Assembly: GCA_946413985.1 (NCBI GenBank)
Contig: CAMKMS010000001.1
Coordinates: 12,317-76,316, forward strand
Direction: 5' to 3'
DNA: 64,000 nucleotides
Origin: an uncultured Mycoplasmatota bacterium
Lineage (GTDB): Bacteria > Bacillota_I > Bacilli_A > RF39 > UBA660
The position numbers were made by a program, and so were the translations under genes. A model generated the notes under the pieces. That model was given only the letters and a program-made list of their open reading frames with translations. It ran no database searches and had not been told where the DNA came from. Position 1 is the stretch's first letter, and each line of letters begins with the position of its first letter. Positions 7,868-56,369 of this stretch are shown here, in pieces.

Positions 7868-7896
7868 TTGACATTTTTATATTTTTATGTTAATAT
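7868..7896 (+). promoter_or_regulatory. Near-consensus sigma-A promoter driving the large ncRNA
   Basis: TTGACA (7868-7873), a 17-nt spacer, then TAATAT (7891-7896) with TG at 7888-7889 (extended -10). Confidence 0.75.
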
Positions 7897-7902
7897 TATT
7901 AA

Positions 7903-8369
7903 GTGTGTGGAGCACTATGCTAGTCAAATTTTTCACTAGAAGGTGGGGCTAAAAATCCACTAATTGCGTAAAATGATACTTTATATATTATGCTTCTCTC
8001 GCCCAGATTGGGGCAAATGTATAATTTTAGATTTAAGGATATTATATAATGGCATATATAAAAATTCCTTTCATCACATCGGAGATTATGAAAGCGCATG
8101 TCGTGAGTGATTTATTGGGATATTAATATTGAAAAATAAATTGCAAAAGCGAATAAAAGTGAAATATATTTGTTTGGGAAAACCTCTAGCGTGTCCTTAT
8201 TATAAAGATTGAGGTGCGGACTAAGTGGTGATCGAGTGATCATACTGGCAACATATGATTTGTATCTTTAAAAAGAAATTGCCTAAAGGTAACTAAGGGT
8301 AGATATAAGAGAAATTCAACTCGACCAAAGCCGTAAAATTAATTTGTAATAATCCATACAGTTTTTTTT
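7903..8369 (+). ncRNA. Large (~460 nt) structured non-coding RNA; candidate OLE-like RNA or novel class
   Basis: No ORF, and visibly higher G/C than the surroundings. A terminal helix pairs 7904-7911 with 8353-8360, immediately before a U9 tract. Internal hairpins lie at 7920-7939, 7943-7960, 8001-8014, 8035-8070, 8229-8242 (GAGU loop) and 8247-8283. A 4-TM protein gene follows directly. The class assignment is unverified. Confidence 0.6.
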
Positions 8370-8382
8370 TAGGAGAAAATAA

Positions 8383-8907
8383 ATGAAAAATGATAACTGG
8401 ATTTTAAAAGCTTTTTTTTATACTTTTTTTGTAGCTATAATTTTTAATACTTTTTCAAATGTTATAATTAATAAATTTGATAATATAATTATATTAATAA
8501 TATTAACTATTTTATTTGTTTTTATTGGAATACTATTTGATGTAGTCGGAACTGCTGTATTAACAGCTGAAGAAGCAACATTTCATGCTAAAAGTACAAA
8601 GAAAATAAAAGGTGCTAAAGAAGGCGTATATTTAATAAAAAATGGAAGCACTATATCTTCCATTTGTAATGATGTAATTGGCGATATTTGTGGAATAGTA
8701 AGTGGTGCTCTATCAGCTATGATTGCAATTATACTATCAACAAAATTTAATATTTCACCAATAATAACAATTATTATTATTAGTTCAGTTATATCATCAC
8801 TAACTGTTGGTGGAAAAGCAATTGGTAAAAAAATGGCTATTAAAAATAGCGATGATATTATATTTTTAGTTTCTAAAATATTAAGTAAATTTAAAAGAAG
8901 TTGTTAA
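8383..8907 (+). CDS. Small 4-TM membrane protein, DUF21/CNNM-TM-like; OapA-like candidate
   Basis: 174 aa with four hydrophobic helices. A TAEEAT..KIKGAKEGVYLIKNGSTISSICNDVIGDICGIVSG segment resembles the DUF21 core. It carries a DxxxD motif (D97, D101). AGGAG RBS 7 nt upstream. Confidence 0.5.
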   Translation: MKNDNWILKAFFYTFFVAIIFNTFSNVIINKFDNIIILIILTILFVFIGILFDVVGTAVLTAEEATFHAKSTKKIKGAKEGVYLIKNGSTISSICNDVIGDICGIVSGALSAMIAIILSTKFNISPIITIIIISSVISSLTVGGKAIGKKMAIKNSDDIIFLVSKILSKFKRSC

Positions 8908-12910: not shown

Positions 12911-13264
12911 TTATTTTGGATTTGGATATTCTAGTAAACCTTTACCATATCCTTCTAACCAATAAATTTTATTATTTCGAACTCTTAGTTTATAATAAAT
13001 TTCATATTTTATATTATCTTGATCAGAATATGTAAAGTATAAATTTGAAATACCATTTTTATTAACAGTAAAAGTCCAATTATTTGTGTCAGAACTGGAA
13101 AGTTCTAAATTATCATTATCTATTTTATAATTCCAATCATAATTTTCTAATTCATCATCAAGATAAATTGTAATACTTTTATCATATACACCTAAGTATG
13201 GATTATAAAAAATAATAAACATGCAAAGTATAAATGTAATAGAAAATATAATAATGTATCTCAT
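12911..13264 (-). CDS. Small membrane-anchored/exported protein, unknown function
   Basis: 117 aa with an N-terminal hydrophobic anchor (IIIFSITFILCMFIIF). AGGAG RBS, and a terminator hairpin after the stop. I recognised no family. Confidence 0.55.
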   Translation of the reverse strand: MRYIIIFSITFILCMFIIFYNPYLGVYDKSITIYLDDELENYDWNYKIDNDNLELSSSDTNNWTFTVNKNGISNLYFTYSDQDNIKYEIYYKLRVRNNKIYWLEGYGKGLLEYPNPK

Positions 13265-13309: not shown

Positions 13310-13485
13310 CTTCCAGTTTCTTGAAAATAAGATTATAGTCATTTATATTAAATGAATAATTTAATATAAATATTACTCTAAATATTATCAGTATTTAGCA
13401 TAATCCCTAATCATTTTGAGTTTCACTTTCTCAACGATATATCATTTGTCCTTGGTAGATTAGTATCTATTTCTTAATTAAATAA

Positions 13486-15804: not shown

Positions 15805-16599
15805 TTAAAATTCATTCTTATAAAGTCCTTTGCAATTAAAACCATTACATTTTATATTATATTTATCTATTATTTTACCATTTTTAATAATCAATACTCT
15901 AGGACTTATATCATTATATAAATATATATCTTTATCTATATCGCTAATATATTTTGATAAATCATTTATAGTTGAATTATTTAATTCATTTGAATCAAAA
16001 AAATAAATATTAGGATTCTTAATAATCCATTTTTCCATAATATCTAGTGCTAGTATACAATCTAATGATGTGCAATTATTGCCCATAAAAACTATTTTAG
16101 AATAACCTTTTTCTTTCATTAATTTCAAAAGCTTTTCACTATCAATTTTACTATATTCAGTTACTTCTTTTTTTTCATCCTTAAAATCAATTATACTTTT
16201 TCCAAAATAATTCTTAAATTCATAATTCATTGAATCTTCAATATTATCAAAAAAAACTTTATCATAAATGTCTATTTTTGTTTCTAAAGAATTTGATTTA
16301 ATTTTACGAATTTCTAAATTTTTTCCACAATTCATTTCAATTAAATTTTTCTTTTTATCATAATTATATGTATTACAATCACTTAAATCAATTTGTGAAT
16401 TATTACTTTTATACTCTATTTTATCTTTATTAATTATTAGTAATTCATAATAACCAGTTGTGTAATCATAATGATACCAATTCTTATTAAGAATTTTACT
16501 ATCTATTGAATTAAAACCAAACATAAAGAAATTAATAATAGCTAGTATTATTAATGAAATAATAACCATAATTATATATCCATATCCTTTATTTTTCAT
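15805..16599 (-). CDS. Membrane-anchored hypothetical protein
   Basis: 264 aa with an N-terminal TM segment (YIIMVIISLIILAIINFFMFGF). The C-terminal half may be thioredoxin-fold-like but has no CxxC. No family recognised. Confidence 0.5.
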   Translation of the reverse strand: MKNKGYGYIIMVIISLIILAIINFFMFGFNSIDSKILNKNWYHYDYTTGYYELLIINKDKIEYKSNNSQIDLSDCNTYNYDKKKNLIEMNCGKNLEIRKIKSNSLETKIDIYDKVFFDNIEDSMNYEFKNYFGKSIIDFKDEKKEVTEYSKIDSEKLLKLMKEKGYSKIVFMGNNCTSLDCILALDIMEKWIIKNPNIYFFDSNELNNSTINDLSKYISDIDKDIYLYNDISPRVLIIKNGKIIDKYNIKCNGFNCKGLYKNEF

Positions 16600-16634: not shown

Positions 16635-16901
16635 TTACTTGTTTGTATTAGCATAATAATTAAATTCACTAATTTCTCGAGAAATATTGTCTAAATCTTC
16701 AAGAGAATCATCGCTTTCTAATATTTCATCTATTTGAAATAATAAATCTTTTATACTAGCACACTTATAAGGATCAATGTCATATCTATTTAATACTTCT
16801 ATTTGATAATCAGATAGAAATATATCTTTATTAATTTTTTTATGCATATACTTTTGATTAACTAAATCGCTAATATCTATTTCTTCTTCATTTATTTTCA
16901 T
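16635..16901 (-). CDS. Small acidic hypothetical protein
   Basis: An 88-aa ORF in the same orientation as, and tightly packed with, its neighbours. No recognisable motif. Confidence 0.4.
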   Translation of the reverse strand: MKINEEEIDISDLVNQKYMHKKINKDIFLSDYQIEVLNRYDIDPYKCASIKDLLFQIDEILESDDSLEDLDNISREISEFNYYANTNK

Positions 16902-17222: not shown

Positions 17223-17669
17223 CTAATTTATATTATTCTTTTTACAATAATTATTTAATATAATTACTTTTGCATGAGATATTTTTGAGATAATTTTTAT
17301 TAATTCATTTTTATTTATATTATTTTTATTATTATAATAATCAATATTTATATCATTGCTATTACAAACCTTATTATATTCATTATTATTAGCACCAATT
17401 ATTATTACGTCTGAATTCATTATTAATTGATTTAAATATATTCTTTTATTTTTTGAAATAATATAGTCATTATCTTTTATTCTGTTTATTAATTCTTTAT
17501 AAGTAATATTATCATATAAAAACAAATTATAATAATTATAATTTATACTATTTAAATAATATTTTTCACCAATATATAAAATATTTTCTTCTTCTTTTTC
17601 ATAGTATTTAAAAATTAAAATTGATATTATTGAAACAAAGAAAAAAATAACTAGAAGTTTTATTTTCAT
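17223..17669 (-). CDS. Membrane-anchored hypothetical protein
   Basis: 148 aa, with an N-terminal TM segment and an Asn/Ile-rich body. No family recognised. Confidence 0.45.
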   Translation of the reverse strand: MKIKLLVIFFFVSIISILIFKYYEKEEENILYIGEKYYLNSINYNYYNLFLYDNITYKELINRIKDNDYIISKNKRIYLNQLIMNSDVIIIGANNNEYNKVCNSNDINIDYYNNKNNINKNELIKIISKISHAKVIILNNYCKKNNIN

Positions 17670-19023: not shown

Positions 19024-19530
19024 TTAAAATATCTTACTAAATATTTCTTTTATTTTAGACTTATAATTAGTATCTTTATTTATGTTTTCATAGTCTAACA
19101 TACAAAGAGAAGGATATAAAATACAAAAATAATTACTACCTTTTGCTTCACCTATTTCTATAACTAATGATTCATACATTCCCTCATCATATACTTTATT
19201 CATAAATACTTTTTTTGGAAATTCATTAAGACCATAAGAAATATTGTATTTTTTATTATAATTATTTTTTTTAAACAATTTATCTATTTTATTATCTATA
19301 TTTTCTAAATTGGAATAAATATTATTCTTTGCTTCTTCAACACTACTATTATCTATAAATAATATTGGAGATAATTCATTAACTACTTTTTCTTTCATTA
19401 TTATATCTTTTTTTGAATCACTATTTGATATTACTCTAAATCTAATAGTATCTTCACTTGTATTATATTCATCTATACTAAGTATGTACATTACTAATAA
19501 AAATCCTACTAATATAATTATTTTTTTCAT
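19024..19530 (-). CDS. spoIIR: Stage II sporulation protein R
   Basis: Signal/anchor peptide plus the IRFRVISNSDSKKDIIMKEKV signature of SpoIIR. Confidence 0.8.
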   Translation of the reverse strand: MKKIIILVGFLLVMYILSIDEYNTSEDTIRFRVISNSDSKKDIIMKEKVVNELSPILFIDNSSVEEAKNNIYSNLENIDNKIDKLFKKNNYNKKYNISYGLNEFPKKVFMNKVYDEGMYESLVIEIGEAKGSNYFCILYPSLCMLDYENINKDTNYKSKIKEIFSKIF

Positions 19531-21982: not shown

Positions 21983-23935
21983 ATGAAAAAATGTTTATTA
22001 TTTTTAAGAATACTTATTGTTCTTTTTTTCACTATAATTATATTTATATTAAGCCTTTATGTGTATGCTTTTATCACACCTAAAGTAAATATAAATGAAA
22101 TAGATAAAATCGTGTTATTAGATAAAGATGGTAATGATATATTTAATAAAGATTATAATAATTATGTTAAACTGAATGATATAAATGATAATATTAAAAA
22201 TGCTATTATTTCAATTGAAGACAAGAATTTTTATTCTCACAAAGGTTTTGATATTTTAAGAATTATAAAAGCATTAATAATAAATATAAAAAGTAAAAAT
22301 ATTGAACAAGGTGCTTCAACTATTTCTCAACAATATGTTAAAAATCTATATCTTACTTTTGATAAGACATGGAAAAGAAAAATAGAAGAAGCTATTCTAA
22401 CAATAAGAATTGAAATGCATTATACTAAAGATGAAATATTAGAAGGATATTTAAATACAATTGATTTTGGTGCTGGAAATTATGGTATAAAGGAAGCAAG
22501 TAATTATTATTTTAATAAAGAACCAAATGAATTATCTCTTGAAGAAGCCACTATTATTGTAGGAATTCCTAAAAGTCCAACTTATTATAATCCTATTATT
22601 AATTATAATAATGCTAAAAAACGTCAATATGATGTATTAACAAGTATGTATAAAAATGGATATATTAGTAAAAAAGAAGTAGAAAAAATATATAATAAAC
22701 AATTAGTTTTTTATGGTAAACATAACAAAATACAATTATCAAGTGCTTATTATTATAAAGACGCAGTTTTAAATGAAATGTCAAATTTAAATCAAATACC
22801 AAACTCACTTTTAGATTTTGATGAAATAAAAATATATACAAATTTTGATTCTGATGTTCAAAGAATATTAGAAAATAATATTGATGAAGAAATGAAAGAT
22901 ACAAGTATGCAAGTTGCATCTATTGTAGTAGAACCTAAAACAGGTAAAATTGTTTCCCTAATTGGTGGTAAAGATTATTCGAAATCTGAATATAATAGAG
23001 CTGTTTATTCTAAAAGACAAGTTGGATCAACAATTAAACCATTTTTATATTATTCTGCACTAGAAAATGGTTTTACTCCATCATCTACTTTTTTAAGTGA
23101 AAGAACAACTTTTAATTTAGGTAATGAATTATATTCACCAAGTAATTTTGGAAATAGATATGCTAATACTAATATTACAATGCTTCTTGCACTTGCTTCT
23201 TCTGACAATATCTATGCTATGAAGACACATTTGTTTTTAGGAATGGATAAATTAAGTGAAATTATTTCTAAAGTTAAAATTAAAGAAAAAGTAAAAGAAA
23301 ATGCAAGTTCTGCTCTTGGCACAACAGAAATAAATATAATTGATTTTTCTAATGGGTATATTACTCTTGCAAATGAAGGAAAACACGAGACACCACATTT
23401 AATTGAGAAAATTACAGATAATAGTGGAAATATATTATATGAATATAAATATAAAAATGAATATATTTTGAATAAAAAATATGTATATATTTTAAATAAT
23501 TTATTAACCTCTACTTATGATTATGATTTACTAAAATACACATCTCCTACTTTAGTTAGTATTTCAAGTTTAATTGATGGAAAATATGCATTAAAAAGTG
23601 GTAGTACAGAAACAGATTTTTGGACTATTGGTTATAATAAAGACTATTTAGTAATGGTTTGGGCCGGAAATGATAATAATGATAAAGTAGATCAAAATGA
23701 AACAAGAATACCAAAGAAAATATGGGCCAAAACTATTAGTACAATTCCATCAAATAAAAAAACTTGGTATGAAATTCCAAGTGGTATAACAAGTGATCAA
23801 ATTGATCCTTTAAGTGGAAAATATAAAATAAATGGATATACTTGTTATTATGAAAAAGGAAGTGAACCAAGTTTTAATTATATAGAATATTATGACTTAT
23901 TATCAAATGCTTCAAAAAAAAATCCTAATAATTAG
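21983..23935 (+). CDS. Class A penicillin-binding protein (glycosyltransferase + transpeptidase)
   Basis: GT51 motifs EDKNFYSHKGFD and RKIEEA. Transpeptidase motifs STIKP (SxxK), SDN and KSGS. Confidence 0.88.
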   Translation: MKKCLLFLRILIVLFFTIIIFILSLYVYAFITPKVNINEIDKIVLLDKDGNDIFNKDYNNYVKLNDINDNIKNAIISIEDKNFYSHKGFDILRIIKALIINIKSKNIEQGASTISQQYVKNLYLTFDKTWKRKIEEAILTIRIEMHYTKDEILEGYLNTIDFGAGNYGIKEASNYYFNKEPNELSLEEATIIVGIPKSPTYYNPIINYNNAKKRQYDVLTSMYKNGYISKKEVEKIYNKQLVFYGKHNKIQLSSAYYYKDAVLNEMSNLNQIPNSLLDFDEIKIYTNFDSDVQRILENNIDEEMKDTSMQVASIVVEPKTGKIVSLIGGKDYSKSEYNRAVYSKRQVGSTIKPFLYYSALENGFTPSSTFLSERTTFNLGNELYSPSNFGNRYANTNITMLLALASSDNIYAMKTHLFLGMDKLSEIISKVKIKEKVKENASSALGTTEINIIDFSNGYITLANEGKHETPHLIEKITDNSGNILYEYKYKNEYILNKKYVYILNNLLTSTYDYDLLKYTSPTLVSISSLIDGKYALKSGSTETDFWTIGYNKDYLVMVWAGNDNNDKVDQNETRIPKKIWAKTISTIPSNKKTWYEIPSGITSDQIDPLSGKYKINGYTCYYEKGSEPSFNYIEYYDLLSNASKKNPNN

Positions 23936-23946
23936 GATTTTTATTT

Positions 23947-25146
23947 TTATTCTAATTGTGTCCCACAATTACTACAGAATTTTCCTTCTACCATAGTATG
24001 ACAATTTGGACATTCTCTTCCAGTTGCTGCTGGTGCTTCTTCTACAGGTGCAGCTGGTGCTTCAACTGGAGTAGCTGGTGCTGCTGGAGCAGCTCCAAAT
24101 AATGTTCCTGGTTCTGGTGTTTGATTTCCTGGATTATATCCTGCTGGTGCTCCTTGAGCATTTTGATTAGCAACTCCCATCATACTTCCTGCAGCTCCTG
24201 CAGCCATATTGAATCCCATAAATCCTGCCATTGCTCCATTAGGATTGCTTGATGCATTTCTAAGAGCATCTGCACTAGCTGAAGCCATAAGACCAGATTG
24301 TAATCCTTGATTTGAGAAGATAACTGCTTCATCAACTTTATTAACTTTAACCATTGATTCATCAGTTAAGTTTAAGTCTCCAATAGCAACATCTGTAATT
24401 TCTAAACCATAGTTTTGTCTCCATGATTCATCTAAACATCTATTCATTTCAGCAGAAATATCACTATTGTATAGTTGAATATCTCCAAAAGATACTTTAT
24501 TTTTTCTCATTACAACTGAAATTGCTTGAGTTAATTGCTCAACAAATTTTGCTTGTAATTGAGTTCCAATTATATCTTCATATGTTACAGTATCTGCTGG
24601 ATTTGCTCCAATAACACTGTTTACTAAAGTAATTGGATCAGTAACTTTAAATGCATATTCTCCAAAGAATGTAACTTCTAACATTCCATATTTTTCGTCA
24701 GTAATTTTCTTTGGTTGTGGTGAACCAAATTTGTTTCCAACTATGTTAAGTAAATTAACATAATAAACTCTTTGATCCCTTGCAGCTTGTCCACCATAAG
24801 TAAAACGTTTTCCAACAGTTTTAAATATATTGACAATGTTTTCACCTAAATTACCAGTAAAGATACTTGGTTCAGAACTTGAATCAAAAGTAAATGTTCC
24901 TGGTTCTGCAGTAAATTCTTTAATTTCTCCATTGTCAATAATCATCATAGCCATTCCTTGTGGTACTGCTATTCCACTACCATTAGAAATAACTCCTGGT
25001 GTTGGATTTGAATTTCCACTTCCGTGATTTACAACTCCTCTTTGAATTAAAACGTCTTTTTCAATTGTTGGGCAAGTAACAAATTCTTTAAATTGATCTC
25101 CTAGTGTACTTGAAGCAGCACTAGTTAATGCTTTAATTAATCCCAT
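23947..25146 (-). CDS. SPFH/band-7-like protein with Ala/Pro-rich linker and C-terminal zinc ribbon (YdjI-like)
   Basis: The N-terminus MGLIKALTSAASSTLGDQFKEF resembles the YdjI family as I recall it. The C-terminus has CPNCHT..FCSNCG. The gene is locally G/C-richer, which produces several shadow ORFs. Confidence 0.65.
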   Translation of the reverse strand: MGLIKALTSAASSTLGDQFKEFVTCPTIEKDVLIQRGVVNHGSGNSNPTPGVISNGSGIAVPQGMAMMIIDNGEIKEFTAEPGTFTFDSSSEPSIFTGNLGENIVNIFKTVGKRFTYGGQAARDQRVYYVNLLNIVGNKFGSPQPKKITDEKYGMLEVTFFGEYAFKVTDPITLVNSVIGANPADTVTYEDIIGTQLQAKFVEQLTQAISVVMRKNKVSFGDIQLYNSDISAEMNRCLDESWRQNYGLEITDVAIGDLNLTDESMVKVNKVDEAVIFSNQGLQSGLMASASADALRNASSNPNGAMAGFMGFNMAAGAAGSMMGVANQNAQGAPAGYNPGNQTPEPGTLFGAAPAAPATPVEAPAAPVEEAPAATGRECPNCHTMVEGKFCSNCGTQLE

Positions 25147-25222: not shown

Positions 25223-26284
25223 TTATTCAACGTCTTTTTCAATTTCAATTACAATTCTATATTTATCAGGATAATCTTCTTCTTTAGTTGTTATTTTTTT
25301 ATTATCAAAATCACTTACTAAATCTCTTACTTTATTTACTACATTTATTATACTTATTTTATTATTTTGTTTAACTTCTTTTTCTTTTATATTATTAGAA
25401 TTTATTTTATTTTCTTTTTTATCTTCATCAAATTCAATATGTCCTTTTTCATTATAATCATAATTATTATTTTTCATATCATTATTAATAATATTATCTA
25501 GATAACTTTCTTCTTGATTATTAATATTCTCTTCAATTTTTTTAATATTTTCTTGAAATTTTAATTGAAATGGAGTTATATCTTCTTCTATATTTACAAC
25601 ATCTGGAACATATTGAATAAATTTATTTTCTTTTTCTGGTTCAATAAATTTATTTATATTTTTTGGAATGTTATTATCATTTTTATTTAATAATATACTT
25701 ATTTCATCCTCTGTTTGTCTAACAGTTAATCTTTCATTAATAATTCTATCAAGTAAAACTAATTGCATATCAGTATCATTTAATGATAATAAACTCCTTG
25801 CATGTCTTTCTGATATTTTACTAAATAATAAAGCATCTTGAACTTTTTTAGGTAGATTTAATAATCTTAATTTATTTGCAATAGATGATTGACTTAAACC
25901 TAATTTATTTGCTAATTCTTCTTGAGTAAATCCTCTATCTAATAATTTTTTAAAAGATTGTGCTTCTTCTATTACAGTTAAATTCTTTCTTTGTAAATTT
26001 TCAAGTAATGCAATTTCTGCACTTGTATTATCATCAGTATTATTAATAATTGCAGGAATAGTTTTAAGACCAGCCATTACAGTAGCTTTATATCTTCTTT
26101 CTCCAGCTATTATTTCATATTTACTACCTATTTTTCTAAGAACAATAGGTTGTATAATACCATATTTCAAAATAGAATTAGAAAGATCTATTAATTCTTT
26201 TTCATCAAAAGCAAGCCTAGGTTGAAATCTATTTGGTAATATATCTTCAACTGGCACTTGTACTATTTTATCTTTTTCTTCCAT
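25223..26284 (-). CDS. noc: ParB-family protein with Noc-type DNA-recognition residues and a long Asn/Lys/Glu-rich C-terminal extension
   Basis: LPNRFQPR, GERRYKA (ParB box II) and the HTH region LGLSQSSIANKLRLLNLPKKVQDAL..ISERHARSL. From memory these match B. subtilis Noc better than Spo0J. It sits next to rsmG. A terminator hairpin follows the stop. Confidence 0.7.
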   Translation of the reverse strand: MEEKDKIVQVPVEDILPNRFQPRLAFDEKELIDLSNSILKYGIIQPIVLRKIGSKYEIIAGERRYKATVMAGLKTIPAIINNTDDNTSAEIALLENLQRKNLTVIEEAQSFKKLLDRGFTQEELANKLGLSQSSIANKLRLLNLPKKVQDALLFSKISERHARSLLSLNDTDMQLVLLDRIINERLTVRQTEDEISILLNKNDNNIPKNINKFIEPEKENKFIQYVPDVVNIEEDITPFQLKFQENIKKIEENINNQEESYLDNIINNDMKNNNYDYNEKGHIEFDEDKKENKINSNNIKEKEVKQNNKISIINVVNKVRDLVSDFDNKKITTKEEDYPDKYRIVIEIEKDVE

Positions 26285-26357: not shown

Positions 26358-27053
26358 TTAATCTTTTTTTATTAAATTATAATTTCGAGGATATTTTAAA
26401 TCTGTCTTTATTATTTTTTTATAAATTAGTATTGTTCTTTTTGAATTTTCAATTGGTAAATAATACTCTTCTTTTTTTATTAATTCATAACCTAATTTTT
26501 TACTTTTTTTCATTGATGAATTTATTTCTTCATCAACATTTGATTTTAATGGTAAAAATAATCCACCTACTTTTAATAATGATACAGATAACTCTAATAT
26601 TATTTTTAAATCTGATACTGCTCTACATGTTATTATATCAAATAATTCCCTATTATCTTTTCCATATTCCTCTGTTCTTTTATTAATAATTGTTACATTT
26701 TTTAAATTTAATAATTTTTTTATATGTTCTAAAAAAGTTACTTTCTTACTATTTGATTCAATTAAAGTAATATTTGATTTATCAAATACTATAGCAATTA
26801 CCATTCCCGGAAATCCAGCGCCAGTTCCAAAGTCACAAATATTTTTATTATTTAGATTTGTTACCTTTACTAAACATAATGAATCATAAAAATGTTTTAA
26901 ATATACATCTTCTTCATTAATAATTGTTGTTAAATTAAATTTATTATTCCAACTAACTAATTCATGAAAATATAAATCTAATTTATTTAATATATTACTG
27001 CTTATATTTATACCTATTTTTTTGCATTCTAAAACAAATTCATTTTTATTCAT
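26358..27053 (-). CDS. rsmG: 16S rRNA (guanine527-N7)-methyltransferase
   Basis: SAM motif DFGTGAGFPG, and a conserved position downstream of mnmG. Confidence 0.9.
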   Translation of the reverse strand: MNKNEFVLECKKIGINISSNILNKLDLYFHELVSWNNKFNLTTIINEEDVYLKHFYDSLCLVKVTNLNNKNICDFGTGAGFPGMVIAIVFDKSNITLIESNSKKVTFLEHIKKLLNLKNVTIINKRTEEYGKDNRELFDIITCRAVSDLKIILELSVSLLKVGGLFLPLKSNVDEEINSSMKKSKKLGYELIKKEEYYLPIENSKRTILIYKKIIKTDLKYPRNYNLIKKD

Positions 27054-32830: not shown

Positions 32831-34219
32831 ATGAATATTGAAGATATTTGGGAAAAATTTTTATCAAAGATTAAATCAAAAGTTTCTTTAATGTCTTATA
32901 ATTATATTTTTAAAGATTTAAAATTACATTCTTATATTAATAGTAAAATCATTATTATTGTTCCTAATAATGAATTATTATTACAAAATATAACAAAAAA
33001 TTATGAATCTTTAATTGAAGAGACTTTAAATGATATTACTAATGATACATGTGCTATTCAATATGTATTTGAATCAGATATAAAAAATATAGATGATAAT
33101 TATTCATCAAATATTATCAATTCTGAAAATGAGGTTAAAAGTAATATAAATAATGATATTACTAATTATAATTATAGTAGTAATTTTAATCCTAAATATA
33201 CTTTTGATACTTTTGTCGTTGGGGAATCAAATAAACTTGCATACGGAACGGCACTTGCTGTTGCTCAAAATCCTGGTAAATTATATAATCCTTATTTTAT
33301 ATATGCAAGTAGTGGATTAGGAAAAACTCATTTAATGCACGCAATTGGCAATTATATAGTTACTCATTCAGATAAAAAAGTTTTATATATTACTGCTGAA
33401 CAATTTTCTAATGATTATAGATCAATAGTTAACTCTAACAATAATAATGTAACATATTTAGAAGCATTTAGAGAAAAATATAGAAATGTTGATGTATTAA
33501 TGATAGATGATATTCAGTTCCTTGAAAATAAAGAAAAAACACAAATAGAGTTTACCAATACATTTAATTCATTGCACGGAAATGATAAACAAATAATTAT
33601 TGCTTCAGATAAATCAATTAATGATTATAAATATTTAGAAGAAAGACTAAAAACAAGATTTAGATGGGGGCTAACTGAATCAATTAATCCACCAGAATAT
33701 GAATTAAAAAGAAATATTATAAAAAATAAGTTGATGGTAAATAATTTTGATTTTGATATTAATGATGAAATAATTGATTATATCGCTAATAATTGTGGAA
33801 GTGATATAAGAAATATTGAAGGTGCAGTAACTAGAATAGCTGCTTATAAGTCAATATTTAATATAGATGAAATAACAATTAATGATGCTAAAGATGCTTT
33901 AAAAGAATTTGTTGATACTCCTGTTTATAGAACTAATTCTATTTCAAAAATTATTGATATTGTATCAAAATACTATGGAATTGATAGTAGTATGATAAAA
34001 GGTAAAATGAAAAAAAAGAATATAGCTGAAGCAAGAGCAATAGTAATGTATTTAAGTAGAATACTAACAGAAGAAAGTTTAGAAAGAATTGGATTAGAAA
34101 TTGGAGGTAGAGATCATTCAACAGTAATATATTCTTATGAAAAAATATCTAATGAATTGAAAACAAATTTAAATTTACAAGAAGTAATAAGAATATTAAA
34201 AGATAAGTTACGTGAATAA
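32831..34219 (+). CDS. dnaA: Chromosomal replication initiator protein DnaA
   Basis: Walker A SGLGKTHL, Walker B MIDDIQFL, and a C-terminal DNA-binding GGRDHSTVIY. Confidence 0.97.
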   Translation: MNIEDIWEKFLSKIKSKVSLMSYNYIFKDLKLHSYINSKIIIIVPNNELLLQNITKNYESLIEETLNDITNDTCAIQYVFESDIKNIDDNYSSNIINSENEVKSNINNDITNYNYSSNFNPKYTFDTFVVGESNKLAYGTALAVAQNPGKLYNPYFIYASSGLGKTHLMHAIGNYIVTHSDKKVLYITAEQFSNDYRSIVNSNNNNVTYLEAFREKYRNVDVLMIDDIQFLENKEKTQIEFTNTFNSLHGNDKQIIIASDKSINDYKYLEERLKTRFRWGLTESINPPEYELKRNIIKNKLMVNNFDFDINDEIIDYIANNCGSDIRNIEGAVTRIAAYKSIFNIDEITINDAKDALKEFVDTPVYRTNSISKIIDIVSKYYGIDSSMIKGKMKKKNIAEARAIVMYLSRILTEESLERIGLEIGGRDHSTVIYSYEKISNELKTNLNLQEVIRILKDKLRE

Positions 34220-35576: not shown

Positions 35577-36041
35577 ATGAATTATGAAATAAATTATGAT
35601 ACACAATTATTATTACCAATAAATGATAAAAAAACCAAAATCATAGAACAAGAAAATGAATATGAAATTGATGAAAATATTAATAAAATAATGGAACATA
35701 GTTGTGAATATTTTGGTAGTTCATATGAAGGTAGAAAAGAAGGAACAAAAAAATTATTAGGCATTACTCATAAATCTCCAATTATTGTTGAAGAAAGTAG
35801 AAGATTAATTTTTTTTCCAACTGCATCTGTTGATAATTCAAAGTGTATATGGATTAATTTAGAAAAGATTGATAAGTATTTTAAATTAGATAAAAATAAT
35901 TCAGCAATTAGATTCAAAAATGGTAATATTATCAATTTAAATATATCTTATGGTTCACTTACAAATCAAATTTTAAGAGCATCAAGATTAAAATATGTTT
36001 TAGAAGAAAGAATTAGTTCAAAAAAAGATAATTATATCTAA
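35577..36041 (+). CDS. comK: ComK-family competence transcription factor
   Basis: ..CEYFGSSYEGRKEGTKKLLGITHKSPIIVEESRRLIFFPT.S....C.WI.. matches the ComK signature as I recall it from B. subtilis. AAGGGGGA RBS. Confidence 0.75.
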   Translation: MNYEINYDTQLLLPINDKKTKIIEQENEYEIDENINKIMEHSCEYFGSSYEGRKEGTKKLLGITHKSPIIVEESRRLIFFPTASVDNSKCIWINLEKIDKYFKLDKNNSAIRFKNGNIINLNISYGSLTNQILRASRLKYVLEERISSKKDNYI

Positions 36042-39156: not shown

Positions 39157-41685
39157 ATGGAAAATGATGAAGAAAAAAATATTGAAATAGATGATAATGA
39201 AGAAAATGATAGTCAAGAAGAAATAATTGATTATGGTGGACAATTTCATGAAAGAGATTCTCACGAGGAAAACAATATAGTTGATGAAGTAAAAGATTCA
39301 TTTTTAGATTATTCAATGAGTGTTATAACATCGCGTGCAATTCCAGATTTAAGAGATGGTTTAAAGCCAGTTCACAGAAGAATTCTATGGTCTATGTTTG
39401 AAGAAGGTAATACTCCAGATAAACCACATAGAAAATCTGCAACAACAGTTGGAAATGTTATGGGTCATTATCATCCTCATGGAGATGCTGCAATCTATGA
39501 TGCTATGGTAAGACTAGCACAAGATTTTAATCAAAGATATATGATGGTAGATGGACATGGTAATTTTGGAAATATTGAAGGTGATGGAGCAGCAGCTTCT
39601 CGTTATACTGAAGCAAGATTATCTAAAATATCTTTAGAATTGTTAAGAGATATAAATAAAGATACTGTAGATATGGATGACAATTTTGATGTTACAAGAA
39701 AAGAACCTAGAGTTTTGCCATCTAGATTTCCAAATATTTTAGTAAATGGTTCAATGGGAATTGCAGTTGGTATGGCAACAAATATTCCTCCTCATAACTT
39801 ATCTGAAGTAATTGATGGATGTATTGCATATATTGATAATCCTGATATTTCAACACTTGAACTAATGGAATATATTAAAGGTCCAGATTTTCCAACAGGA
39901 GGTATTATTCTCGGTAATTCTGGAATAAAGAAAGCTTATGAAACAGGAAGAGGATCAATTACAATTAGAAGTAAAGCCGAAATAGAAGAACATAATGGAC
40001 ATAATTCTATTATTATTACTGAAGTTCCATATGGTGTTAATACACAAGAATTAAAAGATAAAGTTGCAGAATTAGTTCATAATAAAATAATAGATGGAAT
40101 TACAGATTATCATACTGATTTAAAAAATGGAGTTAAAATAACAATTACATTAAAAAAAGATGCTAATGCTCAAGTTGTTTTGAATAATTTATTTAAACAT
40201 ACTGCTTTCCAAGTAAATTATGGAATAATATTCTTAATGTTAGATGGCTTAACTCCTCGTACACTCGGATTAAAAGATATTATTAGTAAATATATTGATC
40301 ATCAAAAAGAAGTAATAATTAGAAGAACTAAATTTGATTTGGCGAAGGATGAAAAAAGAGTACACATTCTAGAGGGTTATAGAATTGCATTAAACAACAT
40401 TGATGAAGTTGTTAAAATTATTAGAAATGCAGATGATGATGCCGATGCTAAAGAAAAATTAATGGATAGATTTGGTTTAGATGAGGTACAATCTGATGCA
40501 ATTTTAGAATTAAGATTAAGAAGATTAACTGGTTTAGAAAGAGAAAAAATAGAAGATGAATTGAATAATTTACTAGCCGAAATAGAAGAATTAAAATCAA
40601 TTTTAGCTTCAAATCAAAAAGTATTAGATATTATAAAGAAAGAAATGCTTGATATAAAAGATAGATATGGTGATGAAAGAAGAACAAAAATTGATATGAC
40701 AGCAATTGATTATATAGAAGATGAGGAATTGATACCTCAAGAAGAAGTAATAGTTACAATAACAAATAAAAATTATATTAAACGTATTACTAAGGATACT
40801 TATAAATCACAAAATAGAGGTGGAGTTGGTATAAAAGGAATGACTACAACAGACGAAGATTTTGTAGAACAATTACTTCCAATGAATACACATGACTATA
40901 TCTTATTCTTCTCAAATAAAGGAAAAGTATATAGATTAAAAGGTTATAAGATACCTGAATATTCAAGAACTGGTAAAGGATTACCTTTAATTAACTTATT
41001 AAATATAGAAAAAGATGAAAAAATTAATACTATTCTAAAAGTAAATGATAGTGATACAAATAAATGTTTGCTTTTTGCTACTAAAAATGGATTGATTAAA
41101 AGAACTAAATTAAGTGATTTTGATAATATTAGACAAACAGGTAAAATTGCAATAACACTTAAAGAGGAAGATGAATTAATAGCTGTAAAAGTAACTTCTG
41201 ATGATAGTCAAATATTAATGTGTTCTTCAAAAGGAAGAATGGTTAGATTTGCTGCAAATGAAGTAAGAATAATGGGTCGTACAGCATCAGGTGTTAGAGG
41301 TATAAATTTATCTAATGATATATGTGTTGGAGCAGAAATATCAGAACCAGGCAAATTATTATTAGTTGTAACTGAAAATGGTTATGGTAAAAAGACAGCA
41401 ATTGAAGAATATAGAGAAACAAAAAGAGGTAGTAAAGGAGTTAAAACATTAAATATATCTGATAAAAATGGAAAAATTATTAGTTTTAAATCAACAAATA
41501 ATGATCAGGATTTAATGATAATAACTACTTTTGGAATTATAATCAGATTGGATGTTAATTCTATATCTCAAATGGGAAGAGTAACTAAAGGCGTTAAATT
41601 AATTAATCTTAAAGATAATAATAAAGTAGCATCAATATCTTTAGTTGATAAAGAAAATGAAATTGAACAAGTAGAAGAAGAATAA
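39157..41685 (+). CDS. gyrA: DNA gyrase subunit A
   Basis: DGLKPVHRR, HPHGD and AAASRYTE (catalytic Tyr), with a C-terminal beta-pinwheel. It has an unusually long acidic N-terminal extension. Confidence 0.97.
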   Translation: MENDEEKNIEIDDNEENDSQEEIIDYGGQFHERDSHEENNIVDEVKDSFLDYSMSVITSRAIPDLRDGLKPVHRRILWSMFEEGNTPDKPHRKSATTVGNVMGHYHPHGDAAIYDAMVRLAQDFNQRYMMVDGHGNFGNIEGDGAAASRYTEARLSKISLELLRDINKDTVDMDDNFDVTRKEPRVLPSRFPNILVNGSMGIAVGMATNIPPHNLSEVIDGCIAYIDNPDISTLELMEYIKGPDFPTGGIILGNSGIKKAYETGRGSITIRSKAEIEEHNGHNSIIITEVPYGVNTQELKDKVAELVHNKIIDGITDYHTDLKNGVKITITLKKDANAQVVLNNLFKHTAFQVNYGIIFLMLDGLTPRTLGLKDIISKYIDHQKEVIIRRTKFDLAKDEKRVHILEGYRIALNNIDEVVKIIRNADDDADAKEKLMDRFGLDEVQSDAILELRLRRLTGLEREKIEDELNNLLAEIEELKSILASNQKVLDIIKKEMLDIKDRYGDERRTKIDMTAIDYIEDEELIPQEEVIVTITNKNYIKRITKDTYKSQNRGGVGIKGMTTTDEDFVEQLLPMNTHDYILFFSNKGKVYRLKGYKIPEYSRTGKGLPLINLLNIEKDEKINTILKVNDSDTNKCLLFATKNGLIKRTKLSDFDNIRQTGKIAITLKEEDELIAVKVTSDDSQILMCSSKGRMVRFAANEVRIMGRTASGVRGINLSNDICVGAEISEPGKLLLVVTENGYGKKTAIEEYRETKRGSKGVKTLNISDKNGKIISFKSTNNDQDLMIITTFGIIIRLDVNSISQMGRVTKGVKLINLKDNNKVASISLVDKENEIEQVEEE

Positions 41686-41700
41686 TTTCTTCTACTTTTT
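41671..41700 (+). terminator. gyrA rho-independent terminator
   Basis: GTAGAAGAA / TTCTTCTAC stem enclosing the stop codon, then T5. Confidence 0.7.
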
Positions 41701-41714
41701 ATTTCCCGGGAAAT
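41701..41714. other. Noc-binding-site (NBS)-type palindrome ATTTCCCGGGAAAT
   Basis: The 14-bp perfect palindrome is identical to the B. subtilis NBS consensus as I remember it. I found only this one copy in the window. Confidence 0.6.
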
Positions 41715-41726
41715 AATTTTGTGTAA

Positions 41727-41742
41727 TGTTCCACGTGGAACA
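41727..41742. other. parS site 1 (TGTTCCACGTGGAACA)
   Basis: A perfect 16-bp palindrome with one mismatch to B. subtilis parS TGTTCCACGTGAAACA. It is origin-proximal. Confidence 0.75.
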
Positions 41743-41772
41743 TATCAATTTAAAAATAAAGTATAATAAAAA

Positions 41773-41788
41773 TGTTCCACGTGGAACA
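41773..41788. other. parS site 2 (TGTTCCACGTGGAACA)
   Basis: An identical second copy 46 bp downstream of site 1. Both share the same flanks (A..T), making 18-bp palindromes. Confidence 0.75.
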
Positions 41789-41800
41789 TATAAATAATAA

Positions 41801-41829
41801 TTGATTTTTCAAAAATAATATCATATAAT
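41801..41829 (+). promoter_or_regulatory. Promoter of the SRP RNA gene (TTGATT-17-TATAAT)
   Basis: TTGATT (41801-41806), a 17-nt spacer, then TATAAT (41824-41829). The predicted start is near G41836. Confidence 0.6.
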
Positions 41830-41835
41830 TAATAC

Positions 41836-41915
41836 GTGCAACAAATAGAATACGAATCAGGTCAGAATTGGAAAATAGCAGCCTTAAGTATAATATTTGT
41901 GTGCACATTTTTTTT
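41836..41915 (+). ncRNA. ffs: Signal recognition particle RNA, minimal (helix 8 only) form
   Basis: CAGGUCAGAAUUGGAAAAUAGCAGCC matches the conserved domain IV (CAGGUCAG....GGAA...AGCAGCC of 4.5S RNA). A closing stem pairs GUGCAACAAAUA with UAUUUGUGUGCAC. A U8 tract follows. Confidence 0.75.
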
Positions 41916-41924
41916 GGAGTAAAT

Positions 41925-42326
41925 ATGAAAAAATATTATGAGTTATTAAAAAAATTAAATAATAAAGCAATAAAGAATGGAGATGTGCCAATATCTGCAA
42001 TTATTGTGCATCAAAATAAAATAATAGCAAAAGAATATAATAGAAAATATAAAAATAATGATCCTTTTGCACATGCAGAAATTTTAGCAATAAAAAAGGC
42101 ATCAAAGGTACTAAAAACGCCTAATTTAAGTGAATGTGAATTGTATGTAACTTTACTTCCTTGTAATATGTGCAAAGAAGTAATTAAAGAATCTAAAATA
42201 AAAAAAGTATATTATTTTATTAACAATAATAAAGAAATTAATTATAAAGTAAATTATTCAAAGTTGGTTGATGAAAATGATTATTTTTCTAAGGAATTAT
42301 CTGATTTTTTTCAACAGAAAAGATAG
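41925..42326 (+). CDS. tadA: tRNA-specific adenosine deaminase
   Basis: Zinc motifs HAE and PCNMC. The start was set to the ATG at 41925 (GGAG RBS); the ORF-track start at 41868 lies inside the SRP RNA. Confidence 0.88.
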   Translation: MKKYYELLKKLNNKAIKNGDVPISAIIVHQNKIIAKEYNRKYKNNDPFAHAEILAIKKASKVLKTPNLSECELYVTLLPCNMCKEVIKESKIKKVYYFINNNKEINYKVNYSKLVDENDYFSKELSDFFQQKR

Positions 42327-51960: not shown

Positions 51961-51999
51961 AAAATAATACCTGTATCAAAATATTATTAGGTGATTTGT

Positions 52000-52503
52000 T
52001 TGAAAAATACAGGAATTATTAGAAAGATAGATGATTTAGGAAGAATTGTTCTTCCAAAAGAGCTTAGAAATTCTCTTAATATTAATTCAGGAGATGATTT
52101 TGAAATAACAATTGATAATAAAAAAATTATATTGGAAAAATTTTCTAAATTAGATTCTTTTGAAGATATAATAAAAAAATATATCAATTGTTTTTATGTA
52201 TCTGAAAATTCAAAATTATTTATTACCATTAATGATAGAATAATAAACTATAATGATGAAAAAGTAACAAATATTATTTCAAAATTAATAAAATTAAGAA
52301 AAATATATATGAATAATAAAACAGATAAAATAATAATTAGTGATAATTTAAATTTAAATGGAAAAGTAATAATATATCCTATTGTAATAAATAGTGATTT
52401 ACTTGGATCTATTATTTATATTTTTAATGAAGATATTAATAATGCAATGGATAAATGCAAAATATTTTATAATATATTTAAAAACATTATAGTTAATAAA
52501 TAG
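52000..52503 (+). CDS. spoVT: Stage V sporulation protein T (AbrB-type N-domain + GAF-like C-domain)
   Basis: TGIIRKIDDLGRIVLPKELRNSLNI..GD is a SpoVT-AbrB swapped-hairpin motif. It lies directly after mfd, as in Bacillus. The likely start is the TTG at 52000, after an AGGTGA RBS. Confidence 0.82.
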   Translation: MKNTGIIRKIDDLGRIVLPKELRNSLNINSGDDFEITIDNKKIILEKFSKLDSFEDIIKKYINCFYVSENSKLFITINDRIINYNDEKVTNIISKLIKLRKIYMNNKTDKIIISDNLNLNGKVIIYPIVINSDLLGSIIYIFNEDINNAMDKCKIFYNIFKNIIVNK

Positions 52504-54699: not shown

Positions 54700-55446
54700 A
54701 TGTATAAAGTTGGTTCTTATGTTACAAGAAATAAATATAATAATGATATTCTTTTTAAAATAGTTGAAATTAAAAATAATAAAGCAATATTAAGAGGAGT
54801 AGATTTAAGATTATATGCTGATGCAGATATTAAAGATTTAAAATTATCTACAATAAATAAAGATATAGAAGAAATTGATTTAAGGAATAATTTAGATATA
54901 AGAGAATATTTTTATATTCCTGGTACTATTTTACATATTGATAGTGATGAGGATTATTTAAATAGATGTTTAAATTTTTATAAAAAAGAAGGAATTAAAT
55001 GTTATGGATATAAGTATAGCGAAAAAGAATATCCAAATATAATTAATGATTTAATAAAAAAACATAATCCAAATATAGTTGTAATAACTGGACATGATGC
55101 TTTTTATAAAAATAAAAATATTTATAAAAATAGTAATTACTTCATTGAAAGTGTTCTTAATATAAAAAAGATAAATAATAATATAATTATTGTTTCAGGA
55201 GCATGTCAAAGTAACTTTGAAGGATTAATGAAAGCGGGTTCATCTTTTGCATCAAGTCCATCTAGAGTAAATATACATGCATTAGATCCGGCAATAATAG
55301 CAGTTTCAATTGCAAAAAATGAATGTGATAAATTGATAGATTTAAAAGAAACAATATCGAAAACAAAATTTGGACTAGATGGTTTTGGGGGAATAGAAGT
55401 ATTTGGAATTATGCACAAAGGGCTTCCTAGAAAGGATAAAAATTGA
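54700..55446 (+). CDS. yabG: Sporulation-specific protease YabG (peptidase U57)
   Basis: GxILHIDSDEDYL, ITGHDA and ACQSNFE signatures, with the conserved ksgA-yabG-veg order. Confidence 0.8.
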   Translation: MYKVGSYVTRNKYNNDILFKIVEIKNNKAILRGVDLRLYADADIKDLKLSTINKDIEEIDLRNNLDIREYFYIPGTILHIDSDEDYLNRCLNFYKKEGIKCYGYKYSEKEYPNIINDLIKKHNPNIVVITGHDAFYKNKNIYKNSNYFIESVLNIKKINNNIIIVSGACQSNFEGLMKAGSSFASSPSRVNIHALDPAIIAVSIAKNECDKLIDLKETISKTKFGLDGFGGIEVFGIMHKGLPRKDKN

Positions 55447-56041: not shown

Positions 56042-56075
56042 TTTATAAAATTCATATTATTAATTGGAGGATAAT

Positions 56076-56369
56076 ATGGATAAAACAAGAGAATCAATAT
56101 TAGAAAATTTAAACCATAAAATTGATATTACTGAAAGAAAAAATATTTATTTAACTGGAGTAAAAAAACTAAATAGTTTTGATGAAAAAGAATTTTTTGT
56201 AGATAGTATAATGGGTCCAATATTAATAAAAGGAAATAATTTAGAATTAATTAAATTAGATACATTTCAAGGATCATTATCTATAAAAGGAAAAATAGAT
56301 TCAATTAATTATTTAGAAGAATCGAAAAAGATTGATAGTGAATCTATTATAAAAAGATTGTTTAAATGA
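56076..56369 (+). CDS. yabP: Sporulation protein YabP
   Basis: ..H.I.I..R....LTGV..L.SFDE.EF......G.L.IKG..L....L.. is the YabP pattern. The start was set to the ATG at 56076, after a GGAGGA RBS. Confidence 0.8.
   Translation: MDKTRESILENLNHKIDITERKNIYLTGVKKLNSFDEKEFFVDSIMGPILIKGNNLELIKLDTFQGSLSIKGKIDSINYLEESKKIDSESIIKRLFK

Follow-up and report, generated by a model that had tools for sequence, protein, structure and literature searches.

ParB and Noc are duplicated DNA clamps that have diverged in site specificity and in function, ParB serving chromosome segregation and Noc the control of the division site, and their sites (parS and NBS, respectively) are treated as independent and orthogonal. 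Bacillus subtilis has 8-10 parS spread across hundreds of kb, a few of which fall within genes, and B. subtilis NBS are scattered at a density similar to ~1 per 40 kb. As a class, NBS are found scattered round the chromosome and are depleted near the terminus. Clustered sites occur in sopC of the F plasmid, which consists of 12 tandem 43-bp repeats, and a chromosomal cluster of 10 parS is reportedly present in Corynebacterium glutamicum. The ancestral Firmicute ORI cluster has been inferred to carry parA, parB and noc beside gidA/gidB (PMC8136486), and Staphylococcus aureus and Streptococcus pneumoniae keep Spo0J/ParB without ParA (PMC7142367). In S. aureus, Noc holds back the initiation of replication and shows 8-10 kb of spreading around its sites (PMC5540599).

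The window (the whole 64-kb stretch of DNA that was analysed) was a Firmicute origin region containing rsmG, mnmG, mnmE, jag, yidC and rnpA, then dnaA, dnaN, a ComK-family gene, recF, gyrB and gyrA, and then SRP RNA, tadA, dnaX and recR, with mfd, spoVT, ksgA, yabG, yabP, divIC, tilS and ftsH further right. The GC skew changed sign with a cumulative minimum at ~32 kb, and gene orientation flipped at rnpA/dnaA. Since the skew minimum falls at dnaA, the patch of palindromes between gyrA and the SRP RNA gene lies ~9 kb to the right of oriC, a distance that the original prediction had given as well. The features of the window are shown in Table 1.

Table 1. Coordinates of the palindromes, their neighbours and the origin reference features in the window.
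Feature	Coordinates	Strand	Remarks
NBS	41700-41715 (core 41701-41714)	.	Perfect 16-bp TATTTCCCGGGAAATA palindrome; 18-bp extended palindrome 41699..41716; overlaps gyrA terminator T-tract
parS copy 1	41727-41742	.	TGTTCCACGTGGAACA, within 18-bp palindrome ATGTTCCACGTGGAACAT at 41726..41743; matches TGTTNCACGTGNAACA
parS copy 2	41773-41788	.	TGTTCCACGTGGAACA, within identical 18-bp palindrome at 41772..41789; matches TGTTNCACGTGNAACA
gyrA	39157..41685	+	Conserved left neighbour of array
gyrA intrinsic terminator hairpin	41669..41697	+	12-bp stem and T-run; left boundary of array
SRP RNA promoter-like site	41801-41829	+	TTGATT-17-TATAAT (promoter scan); with SRP RNA the right boundary of array (41801..41922)
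SRP RNA gene	41827-41922	+	Rfam
dnaA / oriC reference point	32831..34219	+	GC-skew minimum, gene-orientation switch
rsmG (gidB)	26358..27053	-	Immediately upstream of Noc-like gene; canonical noc position, but no soj-spo0J after it
Noc-lineage ParB-family CTPase gene	25223..26284	-	353 aa; predicted NBS reader; directly after rsmG

Direct reading of the window at the patch gave ...cttttTATTTCCCGGGAAATAattttgtgtaATGTTCCACGTGGAACATatcaatttaaaaataaagtataataaaaATGTTCCACGTGGAACATataaat..., in which the centre of the first parS copy lies 27 bp from that of the NBS and the second copy lies 12 bp upstream of the SRP RNA -35 hexamer. The original prediction had placed an NBS palindrome right after the gyrA terminator and two identical parS 46 bp apart centre to centre. 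Both placements proved exact, with the NBS match extending to 16 bp and the terminator T-tract running into it. Identical A/T flanks had also been described for the two parS copies; shared flanks do exist, but they amount to A...TAT, which gives the 18-bp palindrome of Table 1.

The sequence TGTTCCACGTGGAACA occurred exactly 2 times in the 64-kb window, while ATTTCCCGGGAAAT had 1 perfect occurrence, the NBS core. Chance expectation for the parS and NBS patterns was obtained from dinucleotide-preserving shuffles of the window. With up to 3 mismatches, the parS pattern gave 3 matches against 0.06 expected, and none of the 100 shuffles reached 3; with up to 2 mismatches, the NBS pattern gave 2 matches against 0.17 expected. 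A palindrome centred on CCCGGG is especially improbable here because the GC content of the window is 23.7%. Noc and ParB loading in vitro was defined with oligonucleotides whose cores are TATTTCCCGGGAAATA (NBS) and TGTTTCACGTGAAACA (parS) (bioRxiv 10.1101/2021.02.11.430593). The window NBS was the same as the former, and the window parS departed from the latter at no position but the degenerate fifth and its mirror (TGTTC...GAACA). By sequence, these are genuine consensus sites of the parS and NBS types, at which binding is predicted.

The palindromes might instead be generic structural or repeat elements, for instance REP-like repeats or further terminator hairpins behind gyrA, with no more than a likeness to parS and NBS. 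They do lie just after a terminator, which folds at -15.3 kcal/mol with the NBS hairpin included, the parS hairpins reach -8.4 to -8.6 kcal/mol, and on the minus strand a T-run after parS copy 2 was flagged as terminator-like. A terminator or RNA-hairpin explanation was rejected, since no T-tract follows the palindromes on the plus strand and the NBS hairpin folded no better than shuffles (z = -0.34); there is also no convergent gene that would need a minus-strand terminator. An influence of clamp loading on SRP RNA transcription, which had been suggested originally, found no support: the promoter scan showed no -35 to match the TATAAT that the parS copies enclose, and its only good promoter lies downstream of parS copy 2.

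For comparison across species, 10 kb on either side of dnaA (21-kb loci) was taken from 80 species genomes. The clade comprised L002-L035, which are uncultured gut MAGs of 24-31% GC labelled Bacilli, Mollicutes or Tenericutes, with a DnaA identity of 42-75%, and the rest were outgroups. Array counts cover the 29 clade loci that reach past gyrA. In these, all parS (137/137, up to 1 mismatch) were located in the spacer from gyrA to tadA/dnaX (33 kb in total), and none were found in the other 556 kb. The same spacer contained 33 perfect or near-perfect NBS, with 14 more scattered in the other 556 kb; NBS density was ~40-fold higher in the arrays, and was ~1 per 40 kb outside them, a figure that refers to ori regions only. 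Perfect NBS were present in the gyrA spacer of L002-L005, L007, L008, L010, L015, L018, L020-L022, L025 and L033, and in some relatives an NBS also lay just upstream of dnaA (L032 at 9583, L026 at 9638).

The arrays contained 2-18 parS copies in 0.1-2.5 kb. The smallest was that of the window (1 NBS and 2 parS), while L018 had 4 NBS and 7 parS, L033 had 6 and 6, L021 had 7 NBS and 6 parS, and L030 had 18 parS; the maxima were 18 parS and 7-8 NBS. The SRP RNA gene followed the array wherever this was checked (L002, L007, L018, L020, L021, L030 and L033). Compared with its closest relative L007, which has three parS copies, the window had the same palindromes with a different copy number and spacer length, and across the clade the palindromes stayed exact while copy number and spacers varied. 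Neither parS nor NBS was found after gyrA in any of the 46 outgroup loci, including those that encode both Noc and Spo0J; the gene order was rsmG-noc-soj-spo0J in Syntrophomonas and rsmG-parS-soj-parB in Lachnospiraceae. The juxtaposition of parS and NBS is therefore as unusual as originally supposed, and the compound platform predicted near the origin was borne out by interleaved parS/NBS arrays in the gyrA-SRP RNA spacer clade-wide.

In a metagenome scan with the pattern NBS-(8-38 nt)-parS, NBS-parS couplets were detected in at least 120 stretches. The 80 that were fetched were all AT-rich (19-35% GC); gyrA stood beside the sites in 56 and dnaX in most of the others, so that 74 had gyrA or dnaX and 6 short contigs had neither. 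Strictly alternating arrays were found in L154, L096 and L153. One of the metagenome loci, L143, belongs to the window's own species.

Tandem repeat analysis with TRF showed a 106-bp unit containing parS in L032, and L154 had a tandem period of about 72 bp. No tandem repeats were detected by TRF in L030 or L021, which indicates that most arrays are not recent tandem duplications; a tandem-repeat origin of the arrays was accordingly retained for L032 and rejected as a general explanation. A coupling to DnaA boxes was likewise rejected as a general feature, given that TTATCCACA abuts parS in L021 and L020 and does not do so in the window or in most relatives.

The repeat unit of L032 is the kind of structure expected if the palindromes were generic elements. 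Against such an origin, the palindromes agree at every position with two independent 16-bp protein sites known from experiment, they are restricted to one spacer and are not dispersed, their sequences are invariant while the spacers diverge between species that share only 45-75% DnaA identity, and a cognate protein predicted to read NBS is encoded nearby. Generic elements are thus a very improbable explanation.

For the geometry and DISCRETENESS, sites were classified by the generalised form T-N-TTYC-N-C/G-N-GRAA-N-A, and the geometry statistics use loci that were not selected on spacing. A large proportion of the in-array NBS (21/33, 64%) were accompanied by a parS at a centre-to-centre distance of 24-47 bp, as in the window (27 bp). 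Only 9% of the gaps between adjacent parS fell in this range, and the observed NBS-parS count was reached in 8 of 5000 label shuffles. Adjacent NBS-NBS pairs numbered 2 as against 52 NBS-parS pairs (6 of 5000 label shuffles). The NBS-parS pairing was repeated in tandem units in L018, L021 and L154.

These figures bear on the classical picture drawn from Bacillus, in which parS would be an ordinary centromere, the NBS one of many chromosome-wide occlusion sites that lies nearby by coincidence, and Noc a protein of division-site selection, with no coupling between the two. The sporadic NBS beyond the arrays (about 1 per 40 kb) fit this picture, and so does the orthogonality of Noc and ParB in vitro (PMC7383237; bioRxiv 10.1101/2021.02.11.430593). 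A coincidental neighbourhood is nevertheless unlikely, as the ~40-fold enrichment in the arrays (33 NBS in 33 kb vs 14 in 556 kb), the non-random 24-47 bp pairing and strict interleaving, with their repetition in tandem units, and the Noc-like protein described below, which has no amphipathic helix of the kind required for occlusion, all argue against it.

The two site classes were also discrete. The 165 sites comprised 122 pure parS, 40 pure NBS and 3 hybrid or degenerate sites, and none of them joined a parS half to an NBS half. At the level of half-sites, 4 of 330 belonged to neither pure class. Hybrids ought to be tolerated if one relaxed reader served all sites, and their near-absence from these sequences therefore implies two discrete specificities and hence two putative readers.

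The window contained a single ParB-family gene, on the minus strand (Table 1). Its product had the domains ParB_N (109.7 bits) and HTH_ParB (108.8 bits) and carried the motifs GERRYKA and ENLQR, with GERRYKA and ENLQRK conserved in its orthologues. Against solved structures it scored 203 bits with Geobacillus Noc, 183 bits with B. subtilis Noc and 159 bits with Spo0J, and the fold is settled by the matches to the Noc structures (E = 6e-59). The score against the NCBIfam Noc model TIGR04285 was 264.7 bits, which is under the cut-off of 315, since the alignment extends over no more than profile positions 1-204 of 255. In a neighbour-joining tree, the Noc-like proteins of the clade grouped with bona fide Noc, apart from canonical ParB, with 92/100 bootstrap support.

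Four residues set the specificity of these proteins, R173/T179/A184/G201 in ParB and Q/K/K/R in Noc (Jalal 2020, PMC7383237). On NBS, Q173 reads A1 and R201 reads C6, and a lysine at position 179 or 184 suffices for NBS specificity (PMC7383237). In the mutational scan, parS-specific variants always had R173, and 82 variants of dual specificity were obtained, mostly with T or S at 201 (PMC7383237). The Noc-like protein has Q-K-N-R at these positions (Q173/K179/R201). Q173 and R201 were invariant in 117 full-length orthologues, in which the combinations included QKNR (95), QKSR (14) and QRNR (5). The protein is therefore predicted to be an NBS-specific reader, by extrapolation from results obtained with ParB of Caulobacter as scaffold and with four Noc orthologues, and as a Q173 protein it should not read parS. 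The QKNR combination itself did not appear in the supplement text of the scan that was searched, and the main text of that paper has no discussion of QKAR/PtoN12 (PMC7383237).

Nucleoid occlusion by Noc requires an N-terminal amphipathic membrane-targeting helix (bioRxiv 10.1101/2021.02.11.430593). The open reading frame of the Noc-like protein starts 16 residues before PNRFQPR and cannot be extended upstream, so that the protein does not contain the segment that bears this helix. In the alignment with Geobacillus Noc, its residue 2 is matched with residue 23, and the 117 orthologues had only 14-22 residues before PNRFQPR. The remainder of the protein includes a variable low-complexity linker of 100-200 aa and then a short conserved C-terminal domain. 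The N-terminal ParA-binding motif, (L/F/I)G(K/R)G(L/F/I) (PMC12704722), was absent in all of the orthologues (117/117). With a score below the Noc cut-off and no membrane helix, the protein may have a function that differs from anything characterised. To call the window palindrome plainly a "Noc binding site" overstates the known function, since the helix that defines the occlusion mechanism of Noc is missing from the protein.

In place of soj-spo0J, the gene that follows the Noc-like gene encodes an SPFH-domain protein. This SPFH gene, considered for a possible membrane partner, adjoins the Noc-like gene only in the closest relatives (L001-L005 and L007). The window has 59 ORFs of 100 aa or longer, and Pfam annotation of 50 of these showed no further ParB or ParA domain among them. 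Searches by tblastn, for which Spo0J and Soj sequences were used solely as probes, detected no canonical ParB or Soj in the window, in the loci of the 34 relatives (10 kb either side of dnaA) or in the 80 metagenome loci; among the window, the 80 genome loci and the 80 metagenome loci, matches were confined to outgroups. A large protein search gave nothing but Noc-like orthologues among the 120 matches listed. Set against the ancestral parA-parB-noc cluster, the presence of noc alone in the window indicates that this lineage kept noc and lost parA-parB from the locus. A single ParB-family gene at the canonical locus had been predicted, and one was found; it is of the Noc type (Q173/R201) and not of the ParB type, and consequently it accounts for the NBS and not for the parS sites. 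The reader of parS is probably a canonical ParB encoded elsewhere in the genome.

The same census could be explained by one bispecific Noc-derived protein that reads both NBS and parS, the clade having lost canonical ParB, so that the array would be the hybrid centromere of a single protein. Such a reader would fit the finding of a lone ParB-family gene, with no ParA, in the origin regions of the window, the 34 relatives and the 80 metagenome loci, and it would fit the disappearance of soj-spo0J from exactly their place in the ancestral cluster. The dual-specificity variants of the scan make it physically possible (PMC7383237), and the loss of the Noc membrane helix looks as if the protein had been repurposed. 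It is quite unlikely all the same, considering that Q173 and R201 are invariant, that the scanned parS binders and dual binders differ from this combination (at 173 and mostly at 201, respectively), and that the tested Noc orthologues do not bind parS (PMC7383237). A bispecific reader should also tolerate hybrid G1/C6 or A1/A6 half-sites, yet only the 4/330 half-sites fall outside the pure classes. Furthermore, the distributions differ, with parS in the array only and NBS also scattered.

On balance, the 88-bp patch is likely to be a minimal, clade-specific, origin-proximal centromere-like array with predicted loading sites for two paralogous ParB-family CTP clamps. The NBS would nucleate the Noc-lineage protein encoded beside rsmG, and the two parS would nucleate a canonical ParB (R173/G201) that has no gene within about 30 kb of oriC and that we infer to be encoded elsewhere. 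Both clamps would load in a CTP-dependent manner and then slide into the flanking DNA, and the 24-47 bp spacing and interleaving would co-concentrate both clamp populations on the same few kb beside oriC. Given the 8-10 kb spreading of S. aureus Noc (PMC5540599), a clamp loaded 9 kb from oriC could reach oriC. With its N-terminal amphipathic helix lost, the Noc-like protein probably does not act in membrane-tethered nucleoid occlusion, and it might act in origin-domain organisation or in the control of replication initiation, in partnership with ParB.

More speculatively, and with less confidence than would make it a working assumption, the interleaved array could be a dedicated device that co-loads two paralogous CTP clamps into a mixed origin complex, with the helix-less Noc derivative as an obligate partner of ParB. 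Taken to its extreme, this reading would leave the clade with no canonical ParB at all and with the Noc-derived orphan as the sole centromere-binding clamp, reading both motifs. Either version, if true, would be a natural case of Noc recruited back into the biology of the chromosome origin, and a natural two-site, two-clamp system for clamp-clamp interference and co-condensation.

Compared with the two-clamp array favoured here, the ParB/Spo0J-parS systems of Firmicutes (B. subtilis, S. pneumoniae, S. aureus) share the 16-bp family TGTTNCACGTGNAACA, the position near the origin and the multiple copies. CTP-dependent ParB clamp loading and SMC recruitment would be expected here as in those systems, in which ParA can also be absent. 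Unlike them, all sampled ori-region parS of the clade lie in one spacer, interleaved with NBS and with no parB nearby. With the Noc-NBS occlusion systems of B. subtilis, S. aureus and Geobacillus, the window shares the NBS core, the Noc lineage, Q173/K179/R201, GERR and ENLQR, and the gene position beside rsmG. It differs from them in a protein without the roughly 20-residue N-terminal extension that bears the membrane helix and with a variable linker of 100-200 aa, in the sub-cut-off TIGR04285 score and in the ~40-fold concentration of NBS at the parS array.

The arrays of sopC and C. glutamicum resemble those of the clade in having many close nucleation sites, to which the tandem units of L032 (106 bp) and L154 (about 72 bp) can be compared. 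Theirs are arrays of one site type for one protein, whereas here two site types alternate for two putative clamps, the second being the predicted distal ParB. Noc of S. aureus, a regulator of initiation, is alike in having sites near dnaA/oriC and a role beyond division-site selection, and unlike in that it is membrane-localised and keeps the helix that is absent here; the passages of that study that were consulted make no mention of NBS-parS coupling (PMC5540599).

Clusters of parS, NBS and Noc are each already known. The literature that was searched held no description of all ori-region parS confined to one spacer, of systematic close-range interleaving of parS and NBS, or of such an array together with a helix-less Noc derivative in a ParA-less origin cluster. 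A clade of uncultured gut, rumen and termite-gut bacteria systematically pairs parS with NBS at a distance of 24-47 bp within a single array near the origin. In these same bacteria Noc has lost its membrane anchor, and parA-parB are gone from the gene cluster at the origin. The order gyrA, parS/NBS array, SRP RNA provides a sequence signature of this clade. Should the coupling prove functional, proteins of the Noc lineage would be able to work at the centromere or origin instead of the membrane, and the clade would offer a natural test bed for two sliding-clamp species that share or block the same DNA, as well as a route to study origin organisation in ParA-less bacteria.

Perfect copies of the Noc-binding-site palindrome (NBS) outside the interleaved parS/NBS arrays of the gyrA-to-tadA/dnaX spacer were found at the same positions in several related ori-region loci, namely inside dnaX, about 2.4 kb upstream of dnaA and just upstream of dnaA. 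The recurrence suggests that these NBS are conserved and provide the Noc-like protein with secondary loading sites in the oriC region. No NBS stood at the dnaX-internal and dnaA-upstream positions in the window. The window contained the perfect palindrome ATTTCTCGAGAAAT, which matched the NBS except that T replaced C6, the specificity position, with the corresponding change at its mirror; it may have arisen by chance (0.17 expected at ≤2 mismatches), or it may represent a weak or variant site. The coordinates of all features are listed in the table.

Positions of features in the window and in related loci (L numbers, locus-internal positions)
Feature	Locus	Position	Strand	Remark
Perfect palindrome ATTTCTCGAGAAAT	window	16672-16685		intergenic, between 15805-16599 and 17223-17669
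Out-of-array perfect NBS	L009, L010, L015, L020	20473, 15031, 20603, 21257		inside dnaX
Out-of-array perfect NBS	L012, L017, L022, L034	7610, 7605, 7538, 7594		~2.4 kb upstream of dnaA
Out-of-array perfect NBS	L032, L026	9583, 9638		just upstream of dnaA
Divergent Noc-like members	L024, L026, L032	2914-3489, 700-1233, 545-1120		
DnaA box/parS abutment	L021	11511-12861		
DnaA box/parS abutment	L020	19093, 19435, 19566		
DnaA box/parS abutment	L030	19465, 20086, 20602		
SPFH/Band-7 gene	window	23947-25146	-	76 bp downstream of Noc-like gene, same strand
ComK-family gene	window	35577-36041	+	Pfam ComK, 1e-46
tadA mechanical ORF	window	41868-42326		TTG start inside SRP RNA gene
OLE RNA	window	7891-8373	+	208 bits
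PGK RNA motif	window	13378-13470	-	Rfam, 75.8 bits
spoIIR, spoVT, yabG, yabP	window	19024-19530, 51991-52503, 54700-55446, 56064-56369		
Class A PBP gene	window	21983-23935		

Divergent members of the Noc-like family had unusual residues at the four specificity positions (K-K-Q-G in L024, Q-K-K-K in L026 and Q-K-T-K in L032). The L026 and L032 members also carried a ParB-like 'PNPxQPRK' box, and the gyrA arrays of these two loci contained parS only; the L024 locus stops short of gyrA.

In a few relatives, parS copies were directly abutted by perfect or near-perfect DnaA boxes (TTATCCACA, TTATGCACA, TTATTCACA), in the arrangement 'TTATCCACA-ATGTTTCACGTGAAACAT'. Five of the seven copies of TTATNCACA in the 14-kb locus L021 fell within its 1.5-kb array. 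No DnaA box abutted parS in the window's patch or in most relatives.

The SPFH/Band-7 gene was adjacent and 78-91% identical in the closest relatives (L002-L005, L007); as pure speculation, its product could conceivably serve as a membrane link for the helix-less Noc. An inserted ComK-family gene separated dnaN and recF in the window. Across the clade it kept this position, with 34-85% identity in L002-L035, and loci from metagenomes showed the same placement. The true tadA start is likely the ATG at 41926, directly past the SRP RNA and preceded by GGAG.

The PGK RNA motif was upstream of ORF 12911-13264, which had no match in a Pfam search. The ornate large extremophilic (OLE) RNA was followed by an unannotated 174-aa ORF (8383-8907). 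OLE RNA is usually associated with extremophilic or anaerobic Firmicutes, so its presence in this gut-associated genome (24% GC) could merit attention. Sporulation genes occurred in the window, although MAGs of the clade carry Mollicutes or Tenericutes labels. The clade thus probably consists of Bacilli that form spores and have small genomes, not of mollicutes without a cell wall; the window also encodes a class A PBP.
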